A program made the translations under genes and the position numbers. 64,000 nucleotides of DNA, taken from a candidate division WWE3 bacterium. Lineage in GTDB: Bacteria > Patescibacteriota > WWE3 > 2-01-FULL-39-13. The stretch covers positions 191,298 to 255,297 of the forward strand of contig CALRDH010000001.1 of NCBI GenBank assembly GCA_943354835.1, read 5' to 3'. Shown here piece after piece: positions 3,032 through 52,868 of this stretch. The stretch's first letter is position 1; each line of letters starts with the position of its first letter. The notes beneath the pieces are model-generated. The model was not told where the DNA came from and did not search any database. It saw only the letters and a program-made list of their open reading frames with translations.

Positions 3032-4204
3032 ATGAAAAATTTCGATCCCTATCAAATTATCACCATCGTACTTTCTATAGCAATTATCGCGTCTATTGGA
3101 GTTTTTATTTATAACCTATCGTTTGGTGGTTTTGGCAAAGCCGCTTTAAGTGTTGATACACAAAATGGCAAAGCAACAGTAATTATTAATGGAAAAGATA
3201 AAGGGGAAACACCTGTTTATACGGAAGAACTTAACGCAAAAAATATAAATGTCCAAGTAAATGGTGAAGGTGCTTCGTATAGCACAATTGTTAAACCTGC
3301 AGGAGGAACTTTGGCCGTCATAAAAAGAGAACTTGGTGCAGGTGGAGCTTTTAGCTCTGGCTTAAATATTTGGTTTACTAAAGGTTCTGGGGCAGATTCA
3401 ATAATTTCTGTTATATCCCCAGATAGTGAAGGCGTTTCTGTTATTGTTGATGGCGTTGAAATGGGAAAAACACCAGTTAAGTTTTCAACTGGGGATTTGT
3501 TAAAGCAAAATGCTGAAGGCAAATATGTTCTTACTTTTAAAAAAGATAGATATCAAGATCAAGAAGTAGAAATAAAAGTTAAGCCTGGATATGAATTAAA
3601 TATTAGAACGGACATGTTTTTGAAACCCTTATCATCTGAAATTGTTTCATTAAGTGGATTTGCAGAAGGAATAAGATTTGTCGGATTTAAAGGAATGACA
3701 GATGCGGCTTTTGCCGACCGAAAGGTCTGGGCAAAAGCCGCATCCTACTGGCTTTCTTCTCGTGGTGCAATCACATTTGATGGAAATAAGATTGAAAAAT
3801 TTAATTACTTTTTATCCGATGACGGAAAGATTTTCAATTCAGAAGCAAATGAAATTTCAGCCGAAGACCTAAAGGTTGAATCAGGAAATGTTGTAATGTA
3901 TTTAGGTTCTGGAAATGATTCAAATATTTCAGATCCCGCAAAAACTATTATCGAAAAGGCAACTGGGAAAATTTCTCCTGCAGCTCCAAGCGCAGATGGA
4001 AAAGGAAGAATTAAAATTAAACCAACTGGCATTGGATATTTAAAGGTTCGAAGTTCCGCTTCAACTGGAAGCACCCAAGTAGGAAAAGTTGATGAAGGCA
4101 CTATTTTCAATGTTATTGAAGTTAAAAATGGATGGTATAAAATTTCTTACGAAACTGGTAAAGATGGTTGGGTTAGTGGAACGTATGTTGAAAGCGTCGA
4201 TTAA
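3032..4204 (+). CDS. Membrane-anchored protein with PEGA-like repeats and C-terminal bacterial SH3 (SH3b) domain
   Basis: N-terminal TM helix; VxVDGxxxGxTP PEGA-like segments; C-terminal GYLKVRSSASTGSTQVGKVDEGTIFNVIEVKNGWYKISYETGKDGWVSGTYV resembles SH3_3. Confidence 0.5.
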   Translation: MKNFDPYQIITIVLSIAIIASIGVFIYNLSFGGFGKAALSVDTQNGKATVIINGKDKGETPVYTEELNAKNINVQVNGEGASYSTIVKPAGGTLAVIKRELGAGGAFSSGLNIWFTKGSGADSIISVISPDSEGVSVIVDGVEMGKTPVKFSTGDLLKQNAEGKYVLTFKKDRYQDQEVEIKVKPGYELNIRTDMFLKPLSSEIVSLSGFAEGIRFVGFKGMTDAAFADRKVWAKAASYWLSSRGAITFDGNKIEKFNYFLSDDGKIFNSEANEISAEDLKVESGNVVMYLGSGNDSNISDPAKTIIEKATGKISPAAPSADGKGRIKIKPTGIGYLKVRSSASTGSTQVGKVDEGTIFNVIEVKNGWYKISYETGKDGWVSGTYVESVD

Positions 4205-16403: not shown

Positions 16404-17498
16404 ATGTCTTCTGCTTATAAGATTTGTGAAAAGTGTGATAGTGCATATACAGGAAGTGTTTGCTTAAAATGCGGGCATTTTGAAGATGCATCACATAATG
16501 ATAATCGGCTTGATGACACTGCGCAGAAGTCAGAAGACTTTGGTTTTCTGACTTCTGCGATTAATGAGAATCGTTCCAAACTTTCAGCAGATTTAAAAAG
16601 TGTTAAAAAGAAATCCCGTGGGTTTTTCTTTCCTTTGTTTCTTGGCATGGTTCTTTTAGGTATTGGAGGATATGCATATTTTCGTTTTATCTATTTTACC
16701 CCTGAATATATTAGTCCTGCTGTGCTTTCCGCACAGATAACAAAAAAGCCTGGTGAGATAGTTAACGAAGTTGTGGAAATCTTCGATTCTAAAGAAAAAT
16801 CTATTCCTTTAGATATTGGGCATGAAGAGGGTAATTTCGATCAGTATGATTTTGCACAGTTTGCTTCTCCCGATACATCTTTGCTTATTACTGCATTTAA
16901 TATCAGAGACGTTCTTTCAAAATATTATGAAGATAAGGGAATTTTAAAAAATTTAAAGTCCGAATTTGATTTATCTGATAATGATATTGATGTGTTTTTC
17001 TCAAAAGGGTTTGCAGTTTATTTCCCTGATAGCGATTTTTCCAAGTGGGGATTTGCAATTTATGTTGAAGACCAGAATTTTGTTGATTCACGTGTTAGTA
17101 AGTTGAAAGATAAAAAAGAGAAGAAGGGATTCGCTTTTAAAGATTATTTTGCTGACGTTGTAGAAATAAAATCGGATGATGAGAAGTCGATGCATTTTCT
17201 TTTAGTATCGAATTCAAAAGAATATCTTGATCAGATGAAAGAATCTTCAGAGGGAAACCTTACGAATTTAGCTGTGGATATAAAATATACTAGAGTTAAA
17301 ACTGATTTGCCAAAACTTGGACAAATTTCCTTTTACAGAAAAACTGATTCCTCTATTTGGAATTTAATGGTCGAGTGGATCGCTTCAAAATATGATTATG
17401 TTGGTTTAGACAAGATCTTATCTGCAATAGATGCTCCTGGCATAGTCTTTTTTTCAAACAGCCAAAAACTAAAAATAACAACAGCCGATGTGATGTGA
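16404..17498 (+). CDS. Hypothetical membrane protein with N-terminal zinc-ribbon
   Basis: CEKCDSAYTGSVCLKCGHF CxxC...CxxC ribbon, one TM helix, then a large extracytoplasmic domain. Confidence 0.4.
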   Translation: MSSAYKICEKCDSAYTGSVCLKCGHFEDASHNDNRLDDTAQKSEDFGFLTSAINENRSKLSADLKSVKKKSRGFFFPLFLGMVLLGIGGYAYFRFIYFTPEYISPAVLSAQITKKPGEIVNEVVEIFDSKEKSIPLDIGHEEGNFDQYDFAQFASPDTSLLITAFNIRDVLSKYYEDKGILKNLKSEFDLSDNDIDVFFSKGFAVYFPDSDFSKWGFAIYVEDQNFVDSRVSKLKDKKEKKGFAFKDYFADVVEIKSDDEKSMHFLLVSNSKEYLDQMKESSEGNLTNLAVDIKYTRVKTDLPKLGQISFYRKTDSSIWNLMVEWIASKYDYVGLDKILSAIDAPGIVFFSNSQKLKITTADVM

Positions 17499-17543: not shown

Positions 17544-17843
17544 ATGAAGAAAACTCAAAGAGAAATAAATATTCGTGAAGCAAGACCTCTCCTTAATAAG
17601 TTATCTGAAGAAGTCGCGTTAACTGATGGTTATTACATAATTACTGTTCGAGATAAACCAAGGTCCATATTAACAAATTACAATGAAGAATTGGTTAGCA
17701 TGCTTGACAAGAAAATGTCTAAAAAATCTGTTACTGCAGGCTCTGTTTTTGCAGATGGAATGGGTAAATGGTTTAAAAACAATCCCCCTATAATTTCTAA
17801 AAAAGATATCACAAGAGAGATTGATAAAATCGCATATGTTTGA
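17544..17843 (+). CDS. Phd/YefM-type antitoxin
   Basis: INIREARPLLNKLSEEVALTDGYYIITVRDKPRSILT fits the Phd/YefM N-terminal fold; overlaps the downstream PIN gene by 23 nt. Confidence 0.6.
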   Translation: MKKTQREINIREARPLLNKLSEEVALTDGYYIITVRDKPRSILTNYNEELVSMLDKKMSKKSVTAGSVFADGMGKWFKNNPPIISKKDITREIDKIAYV

Positions 17844-18264
17844 CGAAGTCTCTTCCTTACTTTTAGATACAAGTTTTATTGTCGGACTTTTTTATGGAGA
17901 TAAATCGACTATTGATAAAGTTTATGATGTTTTGCCTGCGCTCATCACTGTAGACCATCTGTATATTAATAATTACATTATGTCTGAAACACTTACTGTG
18001 CTTTCTCAAAGGATTGGAAAGAAAAAGGCAAGGGAAAGCCTTGAATTTATTTCTGGGCAACGCGTAGATTTAATAGATATCTTAAGAAAAACCGAAGATT
18101 TGGCATTCGATGAATTCTTTAAAATTGAAAGAAAGGATATTAGTTTTGTTGACGTGATGTCTGTTTTGCAAGCTAAAGAAAAATCAATAGGTGGTGTGCT
18201 TACTTTGGACAAGCATTTTGGGTATCTAGGTAAGAAATATGGTGTAAAGATATTTGCGCTGTAA
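17821..18264 (+). CDS. PIN-domain toxin (VapC-like)
   Basis: LLLDTSFIVGLFY... is a PIN acidic N-terminal motif; 147 aa, overlapping the upstream antitoxin. Confidence 0.65.
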   Translation: MIKSHMFDEVSSLLLDTSFIVGLFYGDKSTIDKVYDVLPALITVDHLYINNYIMSETLTVLSQRIGKKKARESLEFISGQRVDLIDILRKTEDLAFDEFFKIERKDISFVDVMSVLQAKEKSIGGVLTLDKHFGYLGKKYGVKIFAL

Positions 18265-18355
18265 TAAGGGTAGCCCTTTTATGCTAAAATATCCTCGCTT
18301 GGTGAAGTTGAGCAAGAGATAACCTTCAAGCCAAATTTCCGAAATTCCCGAATGC

Positions 18356-18432
18356 GGGCGGATAGCTCAACTGGTTAGAGCATCAAGCTTATACCTTGAA
18401 GGTTCATGGTTCGAGTCCATGTCCGCCCACCA
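18356..18432 (+). tRNA. tRNA-Ile with UAU anticodon (TAT), CCA encoded
   Basis: GGGCGGATAGCTCAACTGGTTAGAGCATCAAGCTTATACCTTGAAGGTTCATGGTTCGAGTCCATGTCCGCCCACCA has a perfect 5-bp anticodon stem TCAAG/CTTGA, loop CTTATAC (U33, A37) and discriminator A73. Confidence 0.8.
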
Positions 18433-18589
18433 GAAAACTATAGGTTGTGTCTTCTTGGTTTTGTGATAATATATCAGCGTACATTAAATATGAAAGGCTA
18501 AGACGAAGAGAATTAGTAGCGCTTTTTTGGTGACACTAGAGACTATGCGGATGCTGAAAGCATAGCGTACAAATTTTGCGTGAATTACC

Positions 18590-18806
18590 TCTTCTGAGCT
18601 GGTTATCTGAAACTTCCATTCGGAAATAAAGATAATCCGGGCGCTCCCGTTATAGAGATTAAGGTATGTCACATACGAAACAGAGTACTTTATAAGGTCA
18701 ACACGGTAACGTGTTGATAAAGCAAGGTGGTACAGCCAAATTTAAGGCCCTTGCATTAACAGTTGTAATTAATTTACAGATGTTTTTGCAAGGGCTTTTT
18801 TGTTCT
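18590..18806 (+). ncRNA. Candidate structured ncRNA (motifs colinear with bacterial RNase P RNA; unconfirmed) ending in a hairpin plus U-run
   Basis: About 400 nt downstream of tRNA-Ile has no sense ORF. The + strand carries, in RNase P order, GGAAA..UCCGGGCGCUCC, AACAGAG, a CAACACGGUAACGUGUUG hairpin, AGCAAGG, CCAAAU and UAAGGCCC. The region ends with GCCCTTGCA...TGCAAGGGCTTTTTTG. No P4 3' strand (CCGG...) was found, so the assignment is weak. Confidence 0.2.
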
Positions 18807-18834
18807 TTGCTCAAATATCTCAATAAACATAAAA

Positions 18835-19722
18835 ATGTCAGTTAATGTAATAGAAGACCATTCTTTGTCGACATCATCCTTGGAAGATGTTTTTGGCATT
18901 GGCCATGTCGAAGTAACATGTAACCCAATCGCGGTAAATCAAAGGTGGGAACATCAGCTAAATGAGCGACATTTAAAGCTAGTTACGGTTTTATGTGTCC
19001 CATGTAATTCAAGTGGGTGGTTTTGTCGCTTAGACGACCCTAATCATAAAGCTACACAACAACTTGAGATCATTAATGAAGCCGTAAGGAACATCCAGAG
19101 GTTGGGTTTTGCAGTTGACTGGACTGTAATACTGGGTGATATTTCTAATTTTGTTGGGCTGTGTTTGGATGGACGTGAGATAGGTGAAGCGGTTAATTTA
19201 TCTACTTCCTTTTTGACGTCGCACGGAAATGCGCCGTTTGATGGTGCTGGCTTTTTAATTGGTGAATATGAGGAACGCCTTAAGAAGAATTTTTTTAGCG
19301 GTAATGTATCAGTGGCTTCAGCTTTAGAAAAAACATCAGAGTTGGATGCCGTTATACTTAGAGAAAGATTTGAAATGGCCAATTCATTAATACGAGATTT
19401 AGGTTGTAGCCAAGAGTGGCGCTTGCAAGTCGAAAGTCTGGCACGGGCGAAAGGGGCGAAAACAAAGAGTTTTCCAGATAGTTTGCAAATGCTGTTAAGC
19501 TTAAATAAGGTTGAGTCGAATATTTGGTCGGAGGCATTATTTGAGTTGATAGGTTCTGCACGTGTAAGGACCTTGGTTTCAGCATGCTTTCCGGAAAATA
19601 GTATCTTGGTTTCTATGCAGTCACCGGAAATCGATGATTTTTTTCATTTATTAGGAAATGGCGAAAGTTTTCCAACAATTAGAGCTTTTCCTAGAGAATT
19701 ACTTAGTAGTTTAGATGATTAG
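18835..19722 (+). CDS. Hypothetical protein (no recognisable domain), moderately GC-shifted
   Basis: 295 aa ORF; its composition (W, R, C, H more frequent) differs from core genes. Confidence 0.4.
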   Translation: MSVNVIEDHSLSTSSLEDVFGIGHVEVTCNPIAVNQRWEHQLNERHLKLVTVLCVPCNSSGWFCRLDDPNHKATQQLEIINEAVRNIQRLGFAVDWTVILGDISNFVGLCLDGREIGEAVNLSTSFLTSHGNAPFDGAGFLIGEYEERLKKNFFSGNVSVASALEKTSELDAVILRERFEMANSLIRDLGCSQEWRLQVESLARAKGAKTKSFPDSLQMLLSLNKVESNIWSEALFELIGSARVRTLVSACFPENSILVSMQSPEIDDFFHLLGNGESFPTIRAFPRELLSSLDD

Positions 19723-19854
19723 GAATGGAAATAATAATATGAAAATTAACGAATTGAATTTATCAAGCCCTATTGGTATAGATCAAGTTGATTGGTCGAA
19801 AACCGTGAACATATATACGATTTTATGTCCGTTTATAAAGGTTACAAAAAATGA

Positions 19855-20610
19855 ATGTTTTTTTCTTCTGATTTAAGGTTTTATTCAAAGGTTGAAGGAG
19901 ATCATTTTATTGATGTGGCCGATGCCGTACAAGTGAATCCAAAATTTATATTATTAACTTTTGAATTGCCAATTATTTTAGAGAAGTTAAACTCGATGGG
20001 GATTAATTATAAATACACGATTTATATTGCGGACGAACTTAATACGTTGATGAGGCGATATATTAGTGATTGTGGCAAAGAAGCAATAGAAAAAATTGAA
20101 AAAAGTCGTTGGTTAATGTTGTCTAGTGTTAAGGAAGCCCTTGATATTGCATTGAATGGCAAGAATATTCAAGTCGACGTTCTTTTGACTTCTCGAGTAG
20201 AAAAAATGGAAAAGAGTATTGATGATTTGTTTTTGAAACTTTTGAACGAAAGTTTCCGAAAGGAGTTTTTGAGTAAGTCGCAAAAAGAGTATGCTGAACT
20301 TGTTGAATATTGGAAGAATCTTTCTGGGTATGAAGGTAAGGAATTTGAAAAGATGATTTTAAGGGATCAAGTTGCTTATCGCGCGGTTATGGGCGAGGTA
20401 ATCAGGAAAAGTGGTAATCCATTGATTTTTTCAGGTCAGCCACCAGAGCCAGGTGATTATTTCCATGGAATTATAAAGAAAAAGGTCTTACCAACAATGC
20501 ATGTTTTCAGAAATGTAGAAGGGATTGATGTTATAAGCGATATTGTGAATGAAGCCGATTTAAATATTCATATGAAGAAATTCGACAAGATTAGTTTTGT
20601 AGATTTGTAA
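19855..20610 (+). CDS. Hypothetical protein
   Basis: 251 aa ORF with no recognisable motif. Confidence 0.4.
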   Translation: MFFSSDLRFYSKVEGDHFIDVADAVQVNPKFILLTFELPIILEKLNSMGINYKYTIYIADELNTLMRRYISDCGKEAIEKIEKSRWLMLSSVKEALDIALNGKNIQVDVLLTSRVEKMEKSIDDLFLKLLNESFRKEFLSKSQKEYAELVEYWKNLSGYEGKEFEKMILRDQVAYRAVMGEVIRKSGNPLIFSGQPPEPGDYFHGIIKKKVLPTMHVFRNVEGIDVISDIVNEADLNIHMKKFDKISFVDL

Positions 20611-20630
20611 TAATGTTATATCTTTGATGT

Positions 20631-21191
20631 ATGCAAGACCACACGAATTCAGATTCAAAAAATCAGGCTGTCCCAACTATTCTGGAAGTTGCGCGTGATG
20701 CAATGAATTCTACTGAGGTTGATTTGTATCAATCCGGCAATATTTCTATAATTGGGGAAACCCATATTGTTGCTGGAGCTAACGATAAAATTATTTCTGT
20801 TGTTAAAGAAAAAATAGCAGGTTCACATACTGTATTTTTAGAATTTGATCCTGATAGTATATTGTCAGCAACATATAAGGAGTCTTCTGTGTCTCCTAGT
20901 GCTGGATCTATAGCAAAGGAATTAGCCATAGAAGCCGGAAAGCCGGTTGTTATATTAGATGATAGAGTCTCTTCTCCTATGCGTAAATTTGAGCAGGTTG
21001 GTTTTACCGGCGAAGAAGCGGTAAAAGCTTATGGATGTCAGCTTGGAATACTTTATTTTATTGAACGTCCTAACGAATCGCCGACTTTTGTTATAGGTGA
21101 CTTTTTAACAAAATTAGGCGCATCGGAGAGTACAACGCTTGAGGTTTGTAATCGCGTTCATGGTGGAATTATGGGCTTTCTTAGAAATTAA
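20631..21191 (+). CDS. TIKI/TraB/PrgY-family protein, N-terminal part (first GxxH repeat)
   Basis: IIGETHIVAGANDKIISVVKEKIAGSHTVFLEFDPD resembles the first GxxH...E half of the TraB/GumN/TIKI fold. It terminates at TAA in the same frame as the next ORF. Confidence 0.4.
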   Translation: MQDHTNSDSKNQAVPTILEVARDAMNSTEVDLYQSGNISIIGETHIVAGANDKIISVVKEKIAGSHTVFLEFDPDSILSATYKESSVSPSAGSIAKELAIEAGKPVVILDDRVSSPMRKFEQVGFTGEEAVKAYGCQLGILYFIERPNESPTFVIGDFLTKLGASESTTLEVCNRVHGGIMGFLRN

Positions 21192-21203
21192 GAAGGATAC
21201 GGG

Positions 21204-21431
21204 ATGTTTGATTTTTTAAGAGATTACAGTTTAGGAGATTCTGTAATAAGAGACCATGAATATGCCGGAGCTATAAAAAGGGCTCTTGGTGATGATCCGA
21301 ATCAAACCGCGACTGTGGTTGTTGGTAAGTCGCATGCAAAACCAATAGCAGATATTCTAAACAACGAATATCAGCCCCCAGAAAATATAAAAGGTGTTAT
21401 TAAAAACGTTCGTGATTATATTAATCGATAA
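21204..21431 (+). CDS. TIKI/TraB-family C-terminal fragment (second GxxH repeat), in frame with the preceding ORF
   Basis: VVVGKSHAKPIADIL is the second GxxH motif. Both ORFs share a frame and are separated only by TAA plus 12 nt, suggesting a nonsense-interrupted gene. Confidence 0.35.
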   Translation: MFDFLRDYSLGDSVIRDHEYAGAIKRALGDDPNQTATVVVGKSHAKPIADILNNEYQPPENIKGVIKNVRDYINR

Positions 21432-21492
21432 GAGGAGTTATCCATTTTGTTAGTCTGTAGCCGATTTCTATATTTTTATGGTCCAGTCATCT

Positions 21493-21508
21493 TGACATAT
21501 ATATGTCA
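21493..21508. promoter_or_regulatory. 16-bp perfect palindrome TGACATATATATGTCA containing a TTGACA -35 hexamer; putative TA operator/promoter
   Basis: Located about 20 nt upstream of the ribbon-helix-helix antitoxin start. Confidence 0.35.
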
Positions 21509-21529
21509 GGGTATTAGTCTATATGTTAT

Positions 21530-21754
21530 ATGAAAACAATTCGTACAACTTTCAGAATTGAAGAACAACTAAAAATAGAGGCAGATAAAAAAGCTTTTGA
21601 TTTGAATATTACGTTACAAAAGTTGTTCAACGATGCTTTGCGCATGTTATTGAAAGATTTGAGTAGACAAAAAGCTTCTAGAGTAGTTCTTTTTAGTAAG
21701 CCAGTCGACAAAAGGATCGATAATTTAACAAGAGACGAAATTTATGAAGATTAA
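21530..21754 (+). CDS. Ribbon-helix-helix (CopG/VapB-like) antitoxin
   Basis: 74 aa; RTTFRIEEQLKIEADKKAFDLNITLQKLFNDALRMLL is RHH-like; overlaps the downstream PIN gene by 11 nt. Confidence 0.5.
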   Translation: MKTIRTTFRIEEQLKIEADKKAFDLNITLQKLFNDALRMLLKDLSRQKASRVVLFSKPVDKRIDNLTRDEIYED

Positions 21755-22196
21755 TGGAAAAAAGTTGCTTATAGATAGCAATATATTAATCTACTCTGTA
21801 GATAGTCTTTCTCCGAAATATGATGTTTCTGTAAGCTTTATGAAAGCTTCCGCAGATAAGCTTTGCTTTCCAGTAATAGCTCATCAAAATATTCTAGAAA
21901 CTGTAAGGGTGTTAACTCACAAGAAGTATAATAATCCACTAACAAAAGATGAAGTTTTTATTTTTACTAAAAGTCTGGAGAAGTTTTGTGAGGTTATCTC
22001 TCCTAACCGTGAAACATGGGAAATTATGAAGGCCTTATTAGGCAAGTATAAAGTTATTTCGAATCGGATATTTGATTGTTATCTGGTTGCGACAATGCTT
22101 TCAAATGATATAAAAATTATCGCAACTGATAACGTTAAAGATTTAGAAATTTTTGAAGAAATAAAAGTTTACAATCCTTATAATTTAAGTTCATGA
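21744..22196 (+). CDS. PIN-domain toxin (VapC-like)
   Basis: KKLLIDSNILIYSVD... is the PIN N-terminal motif; 150 aa. Confidence 0.65.
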   Translation: MKINGKKLLIDSNILIYSVDSLSPKYDVSVSFMKASADKLCFPVIAHQNILETVRVLTHKKYNNPLTKDEVFIFTKSLEKFCEVISPNRETWEIMKALLGKYKVISNRIFDCYLVATMLSNDIKIIATDNVKDLEIFEEIKVYNPYNLSS

Positions 22197-22504
22197 GTTT
22201 TCCATCTATATTTTTCGATTTCAACTTCGTGTTCTTTTTTAAATTTTACGCCTTCTTTTTCTAAAAGCGATTGTTGGTCATCGCGATTAAATATCGACCC
22301 ACGGATTGTTAGTTTGCCTTCATTGTTTATGACTCTCCACCATGGGACCTCTGTGTCGGCAGGAAGCTTGTTTAAAATCATACCGACAGCTCTTGCTGCA
22401 CGTGGTGAACCTGCATAAACCGCGATTTGGCCGTAAGAGGCAACCTTGCCGAAAGGGATTGCCTTGATGTGGTTTATAGCTTTTTGCTTAAAATTCTCCA
22501 TCAA
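22178..22504 (-). CDS. Alkyltransferase-like (ATL) DNA-binding protein (MGMT fold lacking catalytic Cys)
   Basis: AIPFGKVASYGQIAVYAGSPRAARAVGMIL...VPWWRVIN has the MGMT helix-turn-helix plus PWxRV in place of PCHRV, which is the ATL signature. Confidence 0.6.
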   Translation of the reverse strand: MMENFKQKAINHIKAIPFGKVASYGQIAVYAGSPRAARAVGMILNKLPADTEVPWWRVINNEGKLTIRGSIFNRDDQQSLLEKEGVKFKKEHEVEIEKYRWKTHELKL

Positions 22505-32116: not shown

Positions 32117-32192
32117 CTGGCGGCGTAGCTCAACGGTTAGAGCACAGCCCTCATAAAGCTGGGGTTGGTAGTTCGATTCTACCCGCCGCCAC
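32117..32192 (+). tRNA. tRNA-Met (anticodon CAT), elongator-type (G1-C72 paired); could alternatively be a lysidine tRNA-Ile2
   Basis: GGCGGCGTAGCTCAACGGTTAGAGCACAGCCCTCATAAAGCTGGGGTTGGTAGTTCGATTCTACCCGCCGCCACCA with anticodon loop CTCATAA. Confidence 0.75.
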
Positions 32193-32202
32193 CATTGCAG
32201 AT

Positions 32203-32215
32203 ATAAGGGCTACCC
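32203..32215. terminator. 13-nt hairpin motif AAGGGCTACCCTT followed by TTTTTG, downstream of tRNA-Met
   Basis: Reverse-complement form of the recurring motif, followed by a T-run; plausible tRNA terminator. Confidence 0.35.
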
Positions 32216-32247
32216 TTTTTGTGTATTTGTCATGATAAACTGTTTCC

Positions 32248-33246
32248 ATGAAAAGAATTCTTACAGGTGATCGTCCTACAGGTCCTTTGCATTTAGGCCA
32301 TTATGTTGGCTCTTTAGAAAACCGTGTAAAACTTCAAAATGATTATGATTCTTATATATTAATTGCTGATGTTCAAGCTTTAACTGATAATTTTGACAGT
32401 CCAGAAAAGGTAAGGTTAAACACTTTGCAAGTTTTGCTTGATAATATTTCAGTCGGACTTGATCCAGAAAAAGTTACATTTCATTTGCAGTCCGCAATTT
32501 CACAAACTGCAGAACTCACAATTTTTTATGCAAATCTTGTTTCTATCGCAAGACTTGAAAGAAATCCAACAGTAAAAGACGAGATTTTGCAAAAAGCTGA
32601 CAAATTTAAAGAATCCGCAACTTTGGGCTTTTTGATGTATCCAGTTTCGCAAGCTGCTGATATTACGATAGTTAAGGGTGAAGTTGTTCCTGTTGGAGAG
32701 GATCAAGTTCCACATATTGAACAAGCACGCGAAATTGTACGAAAATTCAATTCTATTTATGGAGATGTTTTTACAGAGCCAGAAGTTTTGTTAAGTGAAA
32801 ATAAAAGATTAATTGGAACGGATGGAAACGCAAAAATGAGCAAGTCGATCGGGAATTGTATTTATTTATCTGATACCGCCGAATCTGTAAATGAAAAAGT
32901 TAAAAATATGTTTACAGATCCAAATCGAATAAGGGCGACAGATCCAGGAAAAGTAGAAGGAAATCCGGTTTTTATTTATCATGATATTTTTAATACAAAT
33001 AAGCCCGAAGTCGAGGACTTAAAATCTAGATATTTAAAAGGTACGGTTGGAGATGTTGAAGTAAAACAAAAACTCGCAGTCGCGATAAATACATTTTTGG
33101 AGCCAATAAGAGAAAGAAACGCAAAATTTTCTGATCAAAAACTTCTTATGGAAATTTTAGACGCAGGCACAAAAAAAGCACAAAAAATCGCACAAGAGAC
33201 AATGAGAGAAGTAAAAGATGCGATGGGGCTATATCAAATCAGATAA
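32248..33246 (+). CDS. trpS: Tryptophan--tRNA ligase
   Basis: TGDRPTGPLHLGHYVG (HIGH) and KMSKSIGN (KMSKS) motifs; 332 aa. Confidence 0.9.
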   Translation: MKRILTGDRPTGPLHLGHYVGSLENRVKLQNDYDSYILIADVQALTDNFDSPEKVRLNTLQVLLDNISVGLDPEKVTFHLQSAISQTAELTIFYANLVSIARLERNPTVKDEILQKADKFKESATLGFLMYPVSQAADITIVKGEVVPVGEDQVPHIEQAREIVRKFNSIYGDVFTEPEVLLSENKRLIGTDGNAKMSKSIGNCIYLSDTAESVNEKVKNMFTDPNRIRATDPGKVEGNPVFIYHDIFNTNKPEVEDLKSRYLKGTVGDVEVKQKLAVAINTFLEPIRERNAKFSDQKLLMEILDAGTKKAQKIAQETMREVKDAMGLYQIR

Positions 33247-35994: not shown

Positions 35995-36963
35995 TATGAA
36001 TTTGCCTATAGTGGAAGTAGAAGCTGTTTTTTTTCCCAAGATGTTTTAGAAGCTTATGAATCTGCCCCCAGGCCTAAATATCTAGTAGCAGGGTTAAGTG
36101 TTGAATTTAAAAGTGACAGAAAACCTAAATCTGTTCCAACTCCAGCGTGTCAACTTTTCGCAGTAAATAATACTGAAAGTCATGATGTTTACTTTTTTGT
36201 ACAAGATAATGGTTGTGATTTTGAAGCCGACTTAACAAGTCTTGATGCATGTGAGTCTATTGTACTAAGTTATATTTTGCTTGGTTATGATGATAAATTC
36301 AGTATATCGGAGGATACAAAAGTTTATTTAATTAAACGATGTTTACAACTCGGTCAAGACTTCGATAAAACTGTTTCTTATATTTATGCAAAAACGGGGG
36401 TTGATATTAAAGATGTTACTGTTATGGCTATCTCTACAGAAGATTTAAATGCAGATTTAGGTATGCGTGCAAAAAATATTCAAAGTCTGTGTACTAGACG
36501 GTGTAGCGATTCTGAAGTTGAAAGATTGCTCCCCGAAATATTGAAGGCATTACCTAATAAAAAAATTGTTAAAGGCGATGAATTAAAAGAAATTAAGCCG
36601 ATTCAGTGGGATGTTGACGAAAAAGGACGTTCTTATCTAAAAATTTTCAATCGTTATGGTCATTCGTTTTTTTTATATGAGCCAAATGGAAAGCCTAAGT
36701 ATGTTGTTGAATCCTGTGCGACTGAAATTTCAAAAGTACATGGAGGTGGTAGTTTTCCGTTTTTAGCAATTCAACTTGCAATTAGTAATGGAGGTGAAGT
36801 TTCTGAAGAAGTGCTATTAGGCTTAGCAAAGGGACAAGGTCATAAAGCTGGTTTAGCGCAATTGCTTAAAGGATGTGGAATTTTTTGTTTTGATAAAAAA
36901 AGTCGCATGTATTATTTAGATACTCTTGGCGGAGGGGGGGGGATTCGAACCCCCGTGCCATAA
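35995..36963 (+). CDS. Hypothetical protein (ORF extended upstream of the track call to ATG at 35995)
   Basis: The reading frame is open from the TAA at 35962 through an ATG at 35995 into the track ORF 36277..36963 (its first codon is TTG). The 3' 37 nt overlap tRNA-Ser(CGA) on the opposite strand. Confidence 0.4.
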   Translation, partial: YEFAYSGSRSCFFSQDVLEAYESAPRPKYLVAGLSVEFKSDRKPKSVPTPACQLFAVNNTESHDVYFFVQDNGCDFEADLTSLDACESIVLSYILLGYDDKFSISEDTKVYLIKRCLQLGQDFDKTVSYIYAKTGVDIKDVTVMAISTEDLNADLGMRAKNIQSLCTRRCSDSEVERLLPEILKALPNKKIVKGDELKEIKPIQWDVDEKGRSYLKIFNRYGHSFFLYEPNGKPKYVVESCATEISKVHGGGSFPFLAIQLAISNGGEVSEEVLLGLAKGQGHKAGLAQLLKGCGIFCFDKKSRMYYLDTLGGGGGIRTPVP

Positions 36964-37014
36964 ATGACGCAAGCTTTTCGAGAGCTGCCAATTAAACCGC
37001 TCTTGCACCCCTCC
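36927..37014 (-). tRNA. tRNA-Ser (anticodon CGA), long variable arm
   Basis: Minus-strand sequence GGAGGGGTGCAAGAGCGGTTTAATTGGCAGCTCTCGAAAAGCTTGCGTCATTTATGGCACGGGGGTTCGAATCCCCCCCCCTCCGCCA has anticodon loop CTCGAAA and the same acceptor stem as the GCT isoacceptor. Confidence 0.75.
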
Positions 37015-46541: not shown

Positions 46542-47114
46542 ATGCTTTGGAAAATCTTGATTAAATCTTTGTGGGAAAATTGGCCGGCCCTATTGGGTTT
46601 GGCTGCAATGGTATTACCTTTGGCTGCATGTCCACCAGAAGGTGCGACCTCAACCCCGATCCCGGCTGTAACGGCACAAGCGACATACGTCGCGCCGACT
46701 GCGGTGCCTTCGCAAGGAGAGATACTCGAAATCAATATGAGGATTAGCTCCGACGTCGAAGGAGGGAAATGCCTTTCAAGTGGAGACAAGTTTTACTTAA
46801 GTCTTCAAATGGAAGGAATCCCCGAAGATTGGGAAGGGCCTAGATCGGCTAACGTGATTTTTCAAGTCGGTCTTCTGGAAGATGGCCAAATTTGGGTTTT
46901 GAACGAAACCCAGGCCATTAAATTCCAGCTTGACACGGGCGAGACGGCCCAAGGGTCCATAAGGGTAGTTTTTTCACTACCCGACGGATCCGCTGTGAGA
47001 TTCGAAAATCCGGAGTTTCCATACTTCAGATATACGGGTCAAAACCAGGAGGGCAAGTTTTGTTTTGATTTGCCTTTTGGAACGTCTCCAGGAGCGCCTT
47101 TGCGAAAGGCCTAG
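46542..47114 (+). CDS. GC-rich secreted lipoprotein-like protein A (lipobox LAAC)
   Basis: MLWKILIKSLWENWPALLGLAAMVLPLAAC|PPEG...; markedly higher GC than surroundings; two Cys in the mature part. Confidence 0.5.
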   Translation: MLWKILIKSLWENWPALLGLAAMVLPLAACPPEGATSTPIPAVTAQATYVAPTAVPSQGEILEINMRISSDVEGGKCLSSGDKFYLSLQMEGIPEDWEGPRSANVIFQVGLLEDGQIWVLNETQAIKFQLDTGETAQGSIRVVFSLPDGSAVRFENPEFPYFRYTGQNQEGKFCFDLPFGTSPGAPLRKA

Positions 47115-52421: not shown

Positions 52422-52868
52422 ATGTTAGTTTTCGTTTTGTTGAAGAACATTAAAAAAATCGTAGTTCCGGTTGGTCTTGTAATCATGATGTTGCTACTCG
52501 CAGCATTTGAGTGCACTCCTGAGGAGCCACGGGGGAAAGCCCTCCAGCCGGTCTACGGAACATCGTCGGAACAAGCAGTCGTGCAAAGATTTGTACAAAT
52601 ACGGTCAGCAAAAAGCTGCGAGCCATATTTTGAGGTCGAGATGACATCCCAAGGGGCAAGACACACTTACACAATTGTGAAGAGCCCGGCAGGGTTAGGG
52701 GTTGGTCTTGTCGACGACCCGAATAATTTCAATCTAGTGCGGCTTGATGACGAAGTCGAGATGGAATTCGAAGAAGGTTTCAAAGCCACCTTTGACCCTA
52801 CTCCGGCGTTCAATCCAGAAACCGGCTGTTTTGAGTCACAAGATTTTGCCGTGATTTTTAGACGTTAG
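52422..52868 (+). CDS. GC-rich secreted protein B (signal peptide ending LLAAFEC, lipobox-like)
   Basis: MLVFVLLKNIKKIVVPVGLVIMMLLLAAFEC|TPEEP...; high GC; two Cys in the mature part, including a C-terminal GCFES comparable to KFCFD in protein A. Confidence 0.45.
   Translation: MLVFVLLKNIKKIVVPVGLVIMMLLLAAFECTPEEPRGKALQPVYGTSSEQAVVQRFVQIRSAKSCEPYFEVEMTSQGARHTYTIVKSPAGLGVGLVDDPNNFNLVRLDDEVEMEFEEGFKATFDPTPAFNPETGCFESQDFAVIFRR

Follow-up and report, generated by a model that had tools for sequence, protein, structure and literature searches.

In bacterial genomics, few guilt-by-association markers are as reliable as T-box leaders, whose targets almost always serve the charging of one specific tRNA. 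The closest described systems to the locus reported here are the tyrS-type (Tyr/UAC) T-boxes of Firmicutes, exemplified by Bacillus subtilis tyrS. Such leaders have been used to annotate genes, with the specifier codon and the co-regulated genes together providing a context for unknown members of a regulon (Wels et al., 2008, PMC2494555). Two other known arrangements are relevant: VapBC-type toxin-antitoxin (TA) modules, in which a small antitoxin open reading frame (ORF) overlaps the PIN-domain ORF downstream, and genomic islands beside tRNA genes, which carry an integrase and an att direct repeat derived from the 3′ end of the tRNA. Here we describe a T-box leader at 18491-18806 of a 64-kb window (the whole stretch of 64,000 nucleotides that was analysed) from a candidate division WWE3 bacterium of the candidate phyla radiation (CPR), together with the genes that follow it: ORF3 (18835-19722), ORF4 (19855-20610), ORF5 (20631-21191) and ORF6 (21204-21431).

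An earlier sequence-only reading of this window had taken the 17.5-22.5 kb region for a mobile or defence island. The ORFs that it proposed are all present at the positions it gave, and the approximately 400 nucleotides of noncoding sequence in which it suspected a non-coding RNA are real and correspond to the T-box leader. We consider it probable that the region is a T-box-controlled transcription-attenuation operon, containing a novel pair of paralogous genes and ORF5/6, rather than an island. Around it lie two PIN TA modules and a tRNA-Ile gene, which do not belong to the operon but to a local hot spot where TA modules and tRNA-Ile copies rearrange. The features of the operon are as follows.

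18491-18755, forward strand: T-box leader, aptamer and antiterminator (RF00230, 89.7 bits, E 3.4e-20)
18746-18806, forward strand: intrinsic terminator of the T-box expression platform (hairpin of -28.9 kcal/mol, then UUUUUU)
18835-19722, forward strand: ORF3, first gene under predicted T-box control, 295 amino acids, orphan family, probable paralog of ORF4
19715-19876, forward strand: detached N-terminal fragment of ORF4 with the conserved TILCPF motif (matches the N-termini of the intact homologs P0007 and P0009)
19855-20610, forward strand: body of ORF4, orphan family, 251 amino acids as called and about 289 when intact, in every case located after ORF3
20631-21431, forward strand: ORF5/ORF6, a single frame split by TAA at 21189-21191

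The T-box leader and its probable link to tRNA-Tyr

The 18250-18900 interval was scanned with Rfam at a permissive threshold. At 18491-18755 on the forward strand it contains a full-length match to the T-box model RF00230 (model positions 1-219 of 219). The orthologous leader of a distant lineage, L004, scores 108.4 bits, over the gathering score of 93 bits, and those of the close relatives L001 and L002 score 74.5 bits. The window leader comprises a K-turn, Stem I with its specifier loop, AG bulge and distal loop, Stem II and Stem III. In Stem I, an S-turn (AGUA/GAA) accompanies the specifier loop, and the AGAGA bulge and the distal loop GGAUGCUGAAAGC are present, as is the T-box sequence AAGGUGGUACAGCC with its UGGU bulge further downstream. 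The stretch AAUCCGGGCGCUCC had been considered as an RNase P CR-I element; this idea was dropped, since Rfam assigns these nucleotides to Stems II/III of the T-box.

The expression platform has the form expected of transcription attenuation. The 3′ strand of the antiterminator and the 5′ arm of the terminator (AAGGCCCUUGC) share sequence, with GGCCCUU serving both structures, so that the two are mutually exclusive. The terminator hairpin (18746-18800) is followed directly by the U-run, which ends 29 nucleotides before the ORF3 ATG. An equivalent hairpin and U-run are present in L004 with a different sequence; the competing arrangement is thus conserved.

Folding of the leader region gave a z score of -4.5 relative to shuffled controls. 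Covariation was assessed by transferring the Rfam consensus structure onto an alignment of four leaders and counting pairs against slid partners and 500 shuffles. Standard pairs fill 88% of cells, compared with 40-45% in the slid controls. Compensatory double changes occur in 12 pairs, compared with 1-4 in the controls, and none of the 500 shuffles reaches the observed values; with no more than two to three independent lineages in the alignment, this covariation is supportive rather than overwhelming.

The specifier loop has the sequence G-A-A-U-U-A-C on its 3′ side, and the C that comes next is able to pair with the Stem I base. The loop, GAAUUACC, is identical in the window lineage and L004, and the surrounding specifier region GAATTACCTCTT is likewise invariant between the two. 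An 8-nucleotide loop class with the pattern GA-N-U-codon-purine has been described for Staphylococcus aureus glyS (PMC4574755). Read in this register the loop fits the GA-N-U-codon-R pattern and yields the codon UAC, for tyrosine.

The identity of the cognate tRNA is illuminated by the L004 lineage, represented by the contigs of P0009 (L004-L011), a homolog 42% identical to ORF4. In L004 the same kind of leader is followed, in order, by tRNA-Tyr(GTA), an ORF3 homolog (32% identity; tblastn E 6e-34), the ORF4 homolog, a YbaK-like protein and tyrosyl-tRNA synthetase (TyrRS). The YbaK-like gene encodes a tRNA-editing-domain protein (YbaK-like deacylase), and the synthetase is of archaeal type (NF006330, 418 bits against a cutoff of 220). 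In L004, therefore, the ORF3/ORF4 family is linked to both TyrRS and tRNA-Tyr. The tRNA-Tyr gene (within L004:563-4367) lies about 15 nucleotides past the U-run of the T-box terminator, within the regulated unit, an arrangement in which uncharged tRNA-Tyr would induce more tRNA-Tyr. This tRNA has a C1-G72 pair and a short variable arm, which are archaeal characters, as is the type of its synthetase, yet the T-box is bacterial.

We regard the specifier of the window T-box as most likely UAC and tyrosine-specific. This assignment is favoured because the same loop precedes tRNA-Tyr(GUA) and TyrRS in L004, and because specifiers upstream of ligase genes have been found always to match the ligase (Wels et al., 2008, PMC2494555). 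It is also favoured by the fit of the UGGU bulge to the discriminator base of the L004 tRNA-Tyr, A73, to which it is complementary. A73 does not discriminate among Tyr, Leu and Ile tRNAs. The combination of T-box control with linkage to TyrRS, tRNA-Tyr and the YbaK-like gene points to aminoacyl-tRNA homeostasis, not to defence or conjugation.

Elsewhere in the window, the sole class Ib synthetase gene (32248-33246) has TrpRS-like motifs (PF00579, E 2e-64). A tRNA-Met(CAT) gene lies about 50 nucleotides ahead of it (the two spanning 32119-33246), with no T-box between them.

ORF3, ORF4 and their genomic contexts

Both genes behind the leader belong to exceedingly small families. A word-based search of 5.8e9 proteins with ORF3 returned only the protein itself and one homologous 90% cluster, also from candidate division WWE3, whose contigs are L001, L002, L012 and L018; besides the L004 homolog, another is present in L013 (blastp E 6e-12). 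An ORF4 profile run exhaustively with HMMER against 1.84 billion representatives recovered only P0009, P0013, P0015 and, from the window, the protein itself and the detached N-terminal fragment. The ORF4 family therefore amounts to about five 50%-identity clusters among these representatives, with P0007, P0009, P0013 and P0015 as the only homologs; P0016, a further candidate, was rejected as a repeat-protein false positive. Among 185,579 GTDB species representatives the ORF4 profile found no match and the ORF3 profile a single carrier, a WWE3 metagenome-assembled genome. A metagenome scan added no further lineage.

ORF3-like and ORF4-like genes are adjacent wherever the context is available, namely in the window, L002/L012, L004 and L013. 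When the two family profiles are compared with each other, their N-terminal regions align (hhalign probability 84.5%, E 7e-6), with the motif TVLC...W-x-V-I-L-G-D in the ORF3 family opposite TILC...Y-x-V-Y-I-A-D-E in the ORF4 family. A C-terminal motif, Q-x-PE-x-x-D-x-FH...PT, is also common to both (E 9e-4). In each family an invariant Cys ends the predicted first beta-strand and an Asp follows the second strand. From these similarities ORF3 and ORF4 are probably ancient paralogs, and, because they are a paralogous and always adjacent pair, their products probably form a hetero-oligomer. Neither protein has a transmembrane segment, and both are accordingly expected to be soluble. Comparison with L012 gave ratios of nonsynonymous to synonymous substitution rates (dN/dS) of 0.20 for ORF3 and 0.17 for ORF4, similar to the 0.06-0.22 of neighbouring genes and indicative of purifying selection. 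Conserved synteny, paralogy and purifying selection are thus the observed properties of this pair.

Two lineages provide a second type of context. In L013/L014 and in L015 the ORF4 homolog extends into the start of a radical S-adenosylmethionine (SAM) gene, MoaA-like in L013 (L013:360-3814) and SPASM-like in L015 (L015:82-2215); the two radical SAM genes are non-orthologous, and both remain under all family cutoffs. The L013 homolog of ORF3 forms the C-terminal half of a 522-amino acid protein, with an N-terminal extension of about 240 amino acids. L013 also carries RuBisCO, e2b2 and AMP-phosphorylase-like genes.

The window copies of ORF4 and ORF5/6 bear lesions. The T7 run of ORF4 (19858-19864) is one nucleotide shorter than in L002, and the resulting frameshift detaches the conserved N-terminal 45 amino acids, including the invariant Cys motif; dN/dS of this fragment is 0.24. 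ORF5 and ORF6 share one frame, interrupted by the TAA, and the same gene is broken at a different point in L002 (L002:2798-2828); dN/dS relative to L012 is 0.16 for ORF5 and 0.06 for ORF6. Because all these pieces keep dN/dS values of 0.06-0.24, the lesions are either recent or homopolymer or assembly errors. A recoded stop under an alternative genetic code was rejected, the codon being TAA and other genes being intact under table 11.

ORF5/6 is found only in close WWE3 relatives. The sequence-only reading had described it as a split TIKI/TraB-like pair: it is indeed one interrupted frame, but the TIKI/TraB label does not hold, as the repaired 266-amino acid version has no Pfam match at E<=1. 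The separate fragments have none at E<=0.1, and the repaired version has no sequence match in the PDB. Searches with tblastn for remnants of ybaK or tyrS in ORF5/6 found no similarity.

By analogy with well-studied T-boxes, the following mechanism can be proposed. The riboswitch at 18491-18806 would bind a tRNA through the Stem I specifier loop, most likely tRNA-Tyr(GUA) by way of the UAC within GAAUUACC, and the UGGU bulge would test the 3′ end of the tRNA by pairing with A73-C-C-A. Uncharged tRNA would stabilise the antiterminator, allowing polymerase to pass the terminator at 18746-18806 and read through into ORF3 (18835-19722), ORF4 (19715/19855-20610) and probably ORF5/6; we infer that these genes are co-transcribed. 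The ORF3/ORF4 pair may then restore the pool of Tyr-tRNA(Tyr), either through tyrosine supply or salvage or through the processing or modification of tRNA-Tyr or of Tyr-tRNA(Tyr). Such a role is suggested because the same leader co-controls tRNA-Tyr, the YbaK-like deacylase and TyrRS in L004. ORF3 and ORF4 would be real regulated targets, because the T-box is intact and covarying in a lineage where no aminoacyl-tRNA synthetase follows it.

A more specific version is put forward tentatively, as a possibility that we would not yet favour: in CPR bacteria, ORF3 and ORF4 could form a new two-subunit, paralog-heterodimer enzyme that acts in the metabolism of tyrosine or tRNA-Tyr, induced by uncharged tRNA-Tyr through an atypical T-box without a post-codon purine, employing invariant Cys/Asp/His chemistry and cooperating with radical SAM enzymes in other lineages. 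If true, this would represent a new tyrosine route, or a tRNA-Tyr maturation or repair activity, in organisms without standard biosynthesis.

The same loci admit a different history, in which ORF3/ORF4 are a selfish or accessory module that inserted into an ancestral T-box-tyrS operon of the type seen in L004; tyrS later moved away in WWE3, leaving the T-box on genes with no role in tyrosine metabolism. The pairs of L013 and L015, beside radical SAM genes and without a T-box or aminoacyl-tRNA synthetase, would suit such a relic, as would the ORF4 frameshift and the ORF5/6 stop in the window copy and the patchy, very sparse distribution of the family. A hitch-hiking module is nevertheless hard to reconcile with a leader that keeps its full architecture, its compensatory substitutions and an intact terminator/antiterminator where only ORF3-6 follow, and with purifying selection on ORF3 and ORF4. 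Furthermore, experimentally verified T-box targets match the specifier amino acid, according to an open-access survey. We therefore regard this history as unlikely.

Still less likely, in our judgement, is that the pair consumes tyrosine or Tyr-tRNA, or belongs to a radical-SAM-dependent biosynthetic module, rather than acting as a supplier. Its products might then be a Cys-dependent aminoacyl-tRNA transferase or peptide-forming enzyme, by a logic like that of cyclodipeptide synthases (CDPSs), or substrate or scaffold proteins modified by radical SAM enzymes. The overlapping gene ends of the ORF4 family with two non-orthologous radical SAM genes are in keeping with this proposal, and so are the invariant Cys after a beta-strand and the Asp, Glu and His conserved in both paralogs. 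The T-I-L-C-P-F motif of ORF4 may resemble the catalytic-Ser motif of CDPSs, which is of the G-I-S-P-F-N type. Against a consumer, no credible or recurrent Pfam match appears at E<=10, including the CDPS family if its model is in the Pfam copy used, and there is no sequence relative in the PDB. To induce a consumer of Tyr-tRNA while tRNA-Tyr is uncharged would also be counter-productive, and the window region has no radical SAM gene.

Several observations weigh against the reading of the locus as a tyrosine-responsive operon. The first concern the leader. At 89.7 bits, it falls just under the RF00230 gathering cutoff. Taken as a member of the 7-nucleotide, glyQS-like class, its specifier loop would give UUA (Leu). 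A purine after the codon has been called characteristic of all T-boxes (PMC4574755), whereas here the base after the triplet is C under either the UAC or the UUA reading, in four of four leaders; this post-codon C is a real departure from the rule, conserved in both lineages. Neither tyrS nor tRNA-Tyr is present in the window, so that the assignment to tyrosine in this genome depends on the operon of the distant L004 lineage.

Other points concern the proteins. ORF3-ORF6 have no match in Pfam, NCBIfam, PADLOC or PHROGs, in agreement with the earlier remark that they lack clear homology, and ORF3 and ORF4 therefore offer no biochemical clue. Pfam searches at E<=10 with every member of the two families gave nothing credible or recurrent, and family profile searches of the PDB gave noise only. 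AlphaFold2 models were unusable, with a predicted local distance difference test score (pLDDT) of 37 for ORF4 (3 sequences) and 33 for ORF3 (2 sequences). The loci of L013 and L015 lack a T-box, the pair adjoining radical SAM genes instead; the function of the family is therefore not obligatorily tied to tRNA-Tyr. Finally, unless the lesions are assembly errors, the operon may be decaying in the window genome.

Neighbouring TA modules, tRNA-Ile copies and the island question

The operon is flanked by the following features.

17544-17843, forward strand: putative Phd/YefM-type antitoxin of TA module 1 (Pfam PF02604, E 0.005, under cutoff)
17821-18264, forward strand: PIN-domain (VapC-like) toxin of TA module 1 (PF01850, E 1.7e-8, 35.5 bits against a cutoff of 23.6)
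18356-18432, forward strand: tRNA-Ile(UAU), CCA encoded (ARAGORN; Rfam 72.6 bits)
21530-21754, forward strand: putative ribbon-helix-helix (RHH; RelB/Arc/CopG-like) antitoxin of TA module 2 (NCBIfam RelB_DinJ, E 0.019; PHROG Arc-like, E 0.0015)
21744-22196, forward strand: PIN-domain (VapC family) toxin of TA module 2 (PF01850, E 1.8e-9; TIGR00028, E 7.7e-11)
22178-22504, reverse strand: alkyltransferase-like (ATL) protein, a conserved core gene of the right flank (PF01035, E 6e-25)

The tRNA-Ile(UAU) between the modules, already recognised from the sequence alone, was recovered by both ARAGORN and Rfam. The claim of two PIN TA modules stands for the toxins, whose PIN domains exceed the Pfam gathering threshold (35.5 and 38.7 bits), and is less secure for their partners: the upstream antitoxin-like ORFs overlap the starts of the PIN genes, and their family matches are weak and all under cutoffs. 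The YefM-type antitoxin has a dN/dS of 0.12 relative to L012. The alkyltransferase-like gene predicted to follow the region is also present; its product is classed as alkyltransferase-like because VPWWRV replaces the catalytic PCHR motif expected in the MGMT DNA-binding domain, and the gene is outside the T-box operon.

Among the close WWE3 relatives L001, L002, L012 and L018, of which L012 is about 80% identical to the window, all four share the order tRNA-Ile, T-box, ORF3, ORF4, ORF5, ORF6. In blastn comparison with L012, the left flank (S15, PNPase and a 364-amino acid ORF), the T-box/ORF3-6 block and the right flank (ATL, NTP-transferase and onward) are all collinear, with the block in the same chromosomal slot. 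The TA modules behave differently. In the window YefM-PIN precedes the tRNA, whereas in L012 and L002 it lies downstream of ORF6, and PIN toxin 1 (17821-18264) is 84% identical in nucleotide sequence to L012 7233-8011, at a different position; PIN toxin 2 (21744-22196) is orthologous to L012 9426-9899. L012 has, in addition, two more copies of tRNA-Ile, an NTPase_I-T gene and an MNT/HepT module. Because the ORF block and flanks are collinear in L012, it is the TA cassettes and the copies of tRNA-Ile that vary and move.

Within L012:4001-10016, tRNA-Ile(TAT) copies begin at 4001, 8036 and 9940, interleaved with YefM-PIN, NTPase_I-T, RHH-PIN and MNT/HepT. YefM-PIN followed by tRNA-Ile is a unit conserved in the window and L012, which suggests rearrangement through the tRNA repeats. 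The 364-amino acid ORF (16404-17498) lies directly after pnp, a position kept in WWE3 relatives, and its product, which matches no family, combines a hydrophobic segment with a zinc-ribbon-like CxxC...CxxC motif at the N-terminus.

In the island interpretation, the 17.5-22.5 kb region would have been acquired horizontally beside tRNA-Ile and stabilised by its TA modules, with ORF3-6 as defence or conjugation genes. Two real PIN TA modules do flank the ORFs, a tRNA gene is adjacent, ORF3 and ORF4 are extremely rare, and the TA modules and tRNA-Ile copies have been rearranged and multiplied between relatives. The description of the ORFs as accessory is apt in the sense that they are very rare; as mobile cargo it fails, since L001, L012 and L018 all have the ORF block in the corresponding slot, between the same core flanks in L012, and only the TA modules move.

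The hallmarks of integration are missing as well. No integrase or recombinase match was found among the ORFs of at least 40 amino acids in 17.5-22.5 kb. A direct repeat of the tRNA-Ile 3′ end, which the earlier reading proposed to look for near 22.2-22.5 kb, was not found by blastn-short across 21.4-22.6 kb, and no tRNA-Ile fragment longer than 12 nucleotides occurs elsewhere in the window. Between 17.3 and 22.7 kb there are no bracketing repeats, only short chance ones. None of the ORFs matches PADLOC, and the IMG/VR, viral, phage and plasmid collections hold no relatives of ORF3 or ORF4.

The proposed shift in composition was also not significant when measured. Against 63 window genes (GC content 0.342 +/- 0.038), ORF3 has a GC content of 0.398 (z +1.5), ORF4 of 0.332 (z -0.3) and ORF5 of 0.381 (z +1.0), all within the normal spread, and the core ATL gene also reaches 0.398. 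The enrichment in W, C, R and H amounts to z scores of 0.7-1.6, in ORF3 only. The cargo, moreover, is under T-box control and linked to TyrRS, and the repaired ORF5/6 matches no TraB/TIKI profile.

The sole observation that mildly favours some horizontal exchange is the low synonymous divergence (dS) from L012 of the YefM-PIN module and ORF3. It is 0.53 for ORF3 and 0.71-0.79 for YefM/PIN, compared with 1.0-1.9 for flanking genes; recent exchange, gene conversion or nucleotide-level constraint are possible causes. A mobile or defence island is largely refuted for ORF3-6, and we consider it very improbable. TA modules plus a tRNA are insufficient to call a mobile island.

Some further observations concern the tRNAs and composition of the window. 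An Rfam match to the Plastid-ycf2 5′UTR on the reverse strand at 18356-18430 (44.8 bits, under gathering) was rejected as an artefact of a tRNA-derived model; it is antisense to tRNA-Ile and recurs in L001. A tRNA-Ser(CGA) at 36927-37014 was called by ARAGORN and left out by the Rfam scan at the gathering threshold, which recovered 9 of 10 tRNAs. The true GC outliers of the window are 46542-47114 and 52422-52868 (GC content 0.49 and 0.47; z about +3.4 to +3.9). Each encodes a small protein whose N-terminus resembles a signal peptide or lipobox, and both may have been acquired horizontally.

Comparison with known systems

CPR bacteria combine minimal metabolism with a very large share of unknown genes. 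The locus described here gives two orphan families a testable context, tyrosyl-tRNA supply, and suggests that a housekeeping problem may be met in CPR organisms by unknown chemistry.

The region resembles tRNA-associated islands in its adjacent tRNA, accessory genes and flanking TA modules. It differs from them in having no integrase or tRNA-derived repeat, in retaining the same flanks and block in relatives, and in its normal composition. With VapBC-type TA modules it shares the small upstream antitoxin-like ORF overlapping a PIN ORF of about 145-150 amino acids, and a copy number and position that vary between close relatives. Here the antitoxin assignments are weak, and the predicted modules are neighbours, not parts, of the T-box operon.

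The leader itself is most similar to the tyrS-type T-boxes of Firmicutes. It has in common with them the K-turn, the Stem I S-turn (AGUA/GAA), the AG bulge/distal loop, Stems II and III, the conserved T-box sequence GGUGGUAC, the UGGN bulge and an exclusive antiterminator/terminator pair with a U-run; the L004 leader, like them, precedes tyrS. In contrast to the Firmicutes systems, the host here is a CPR bacterium (WWE3), a C lies 3′ of the putative codon, the window K-turn has AGA instead of UGA, and the window-lineage score is under gathering. The first regulated genes would be an uncharacterised paralog pair, not an aminoacyl-tRNA synthetase, biosynthetic or transporter gene, and L004 has a tRNA-Tyr gene within the regulated unit. 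We found no open-access paper linking T-boxes with CPR/Patescibacteria.

Our argument follows the same logic as T-box-guided annotation (Wels et al., 2008, PMC2494555), from specifier codon and co-regulated genes to a context for unknowns. In contrast to that study, the unknowns here are without a recognisable fold or family, and they recur with radical SAM genes in lineages that have no T-box. The riboswitch class and the TA modules are already well known. New are the presence of a T-box in a CPR bacterium and its invariant post-codon C, the tRNA gene within the regulated unit of one lineage, and the linkage of a T-box and TyrRS to two orphan families that elsewhere pair with radical SAM enzymes. 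As a natural T-box variant without the 'universal' post-codon purine, the leader is of interest for structural studies of how T-boxes recognise tRNA.

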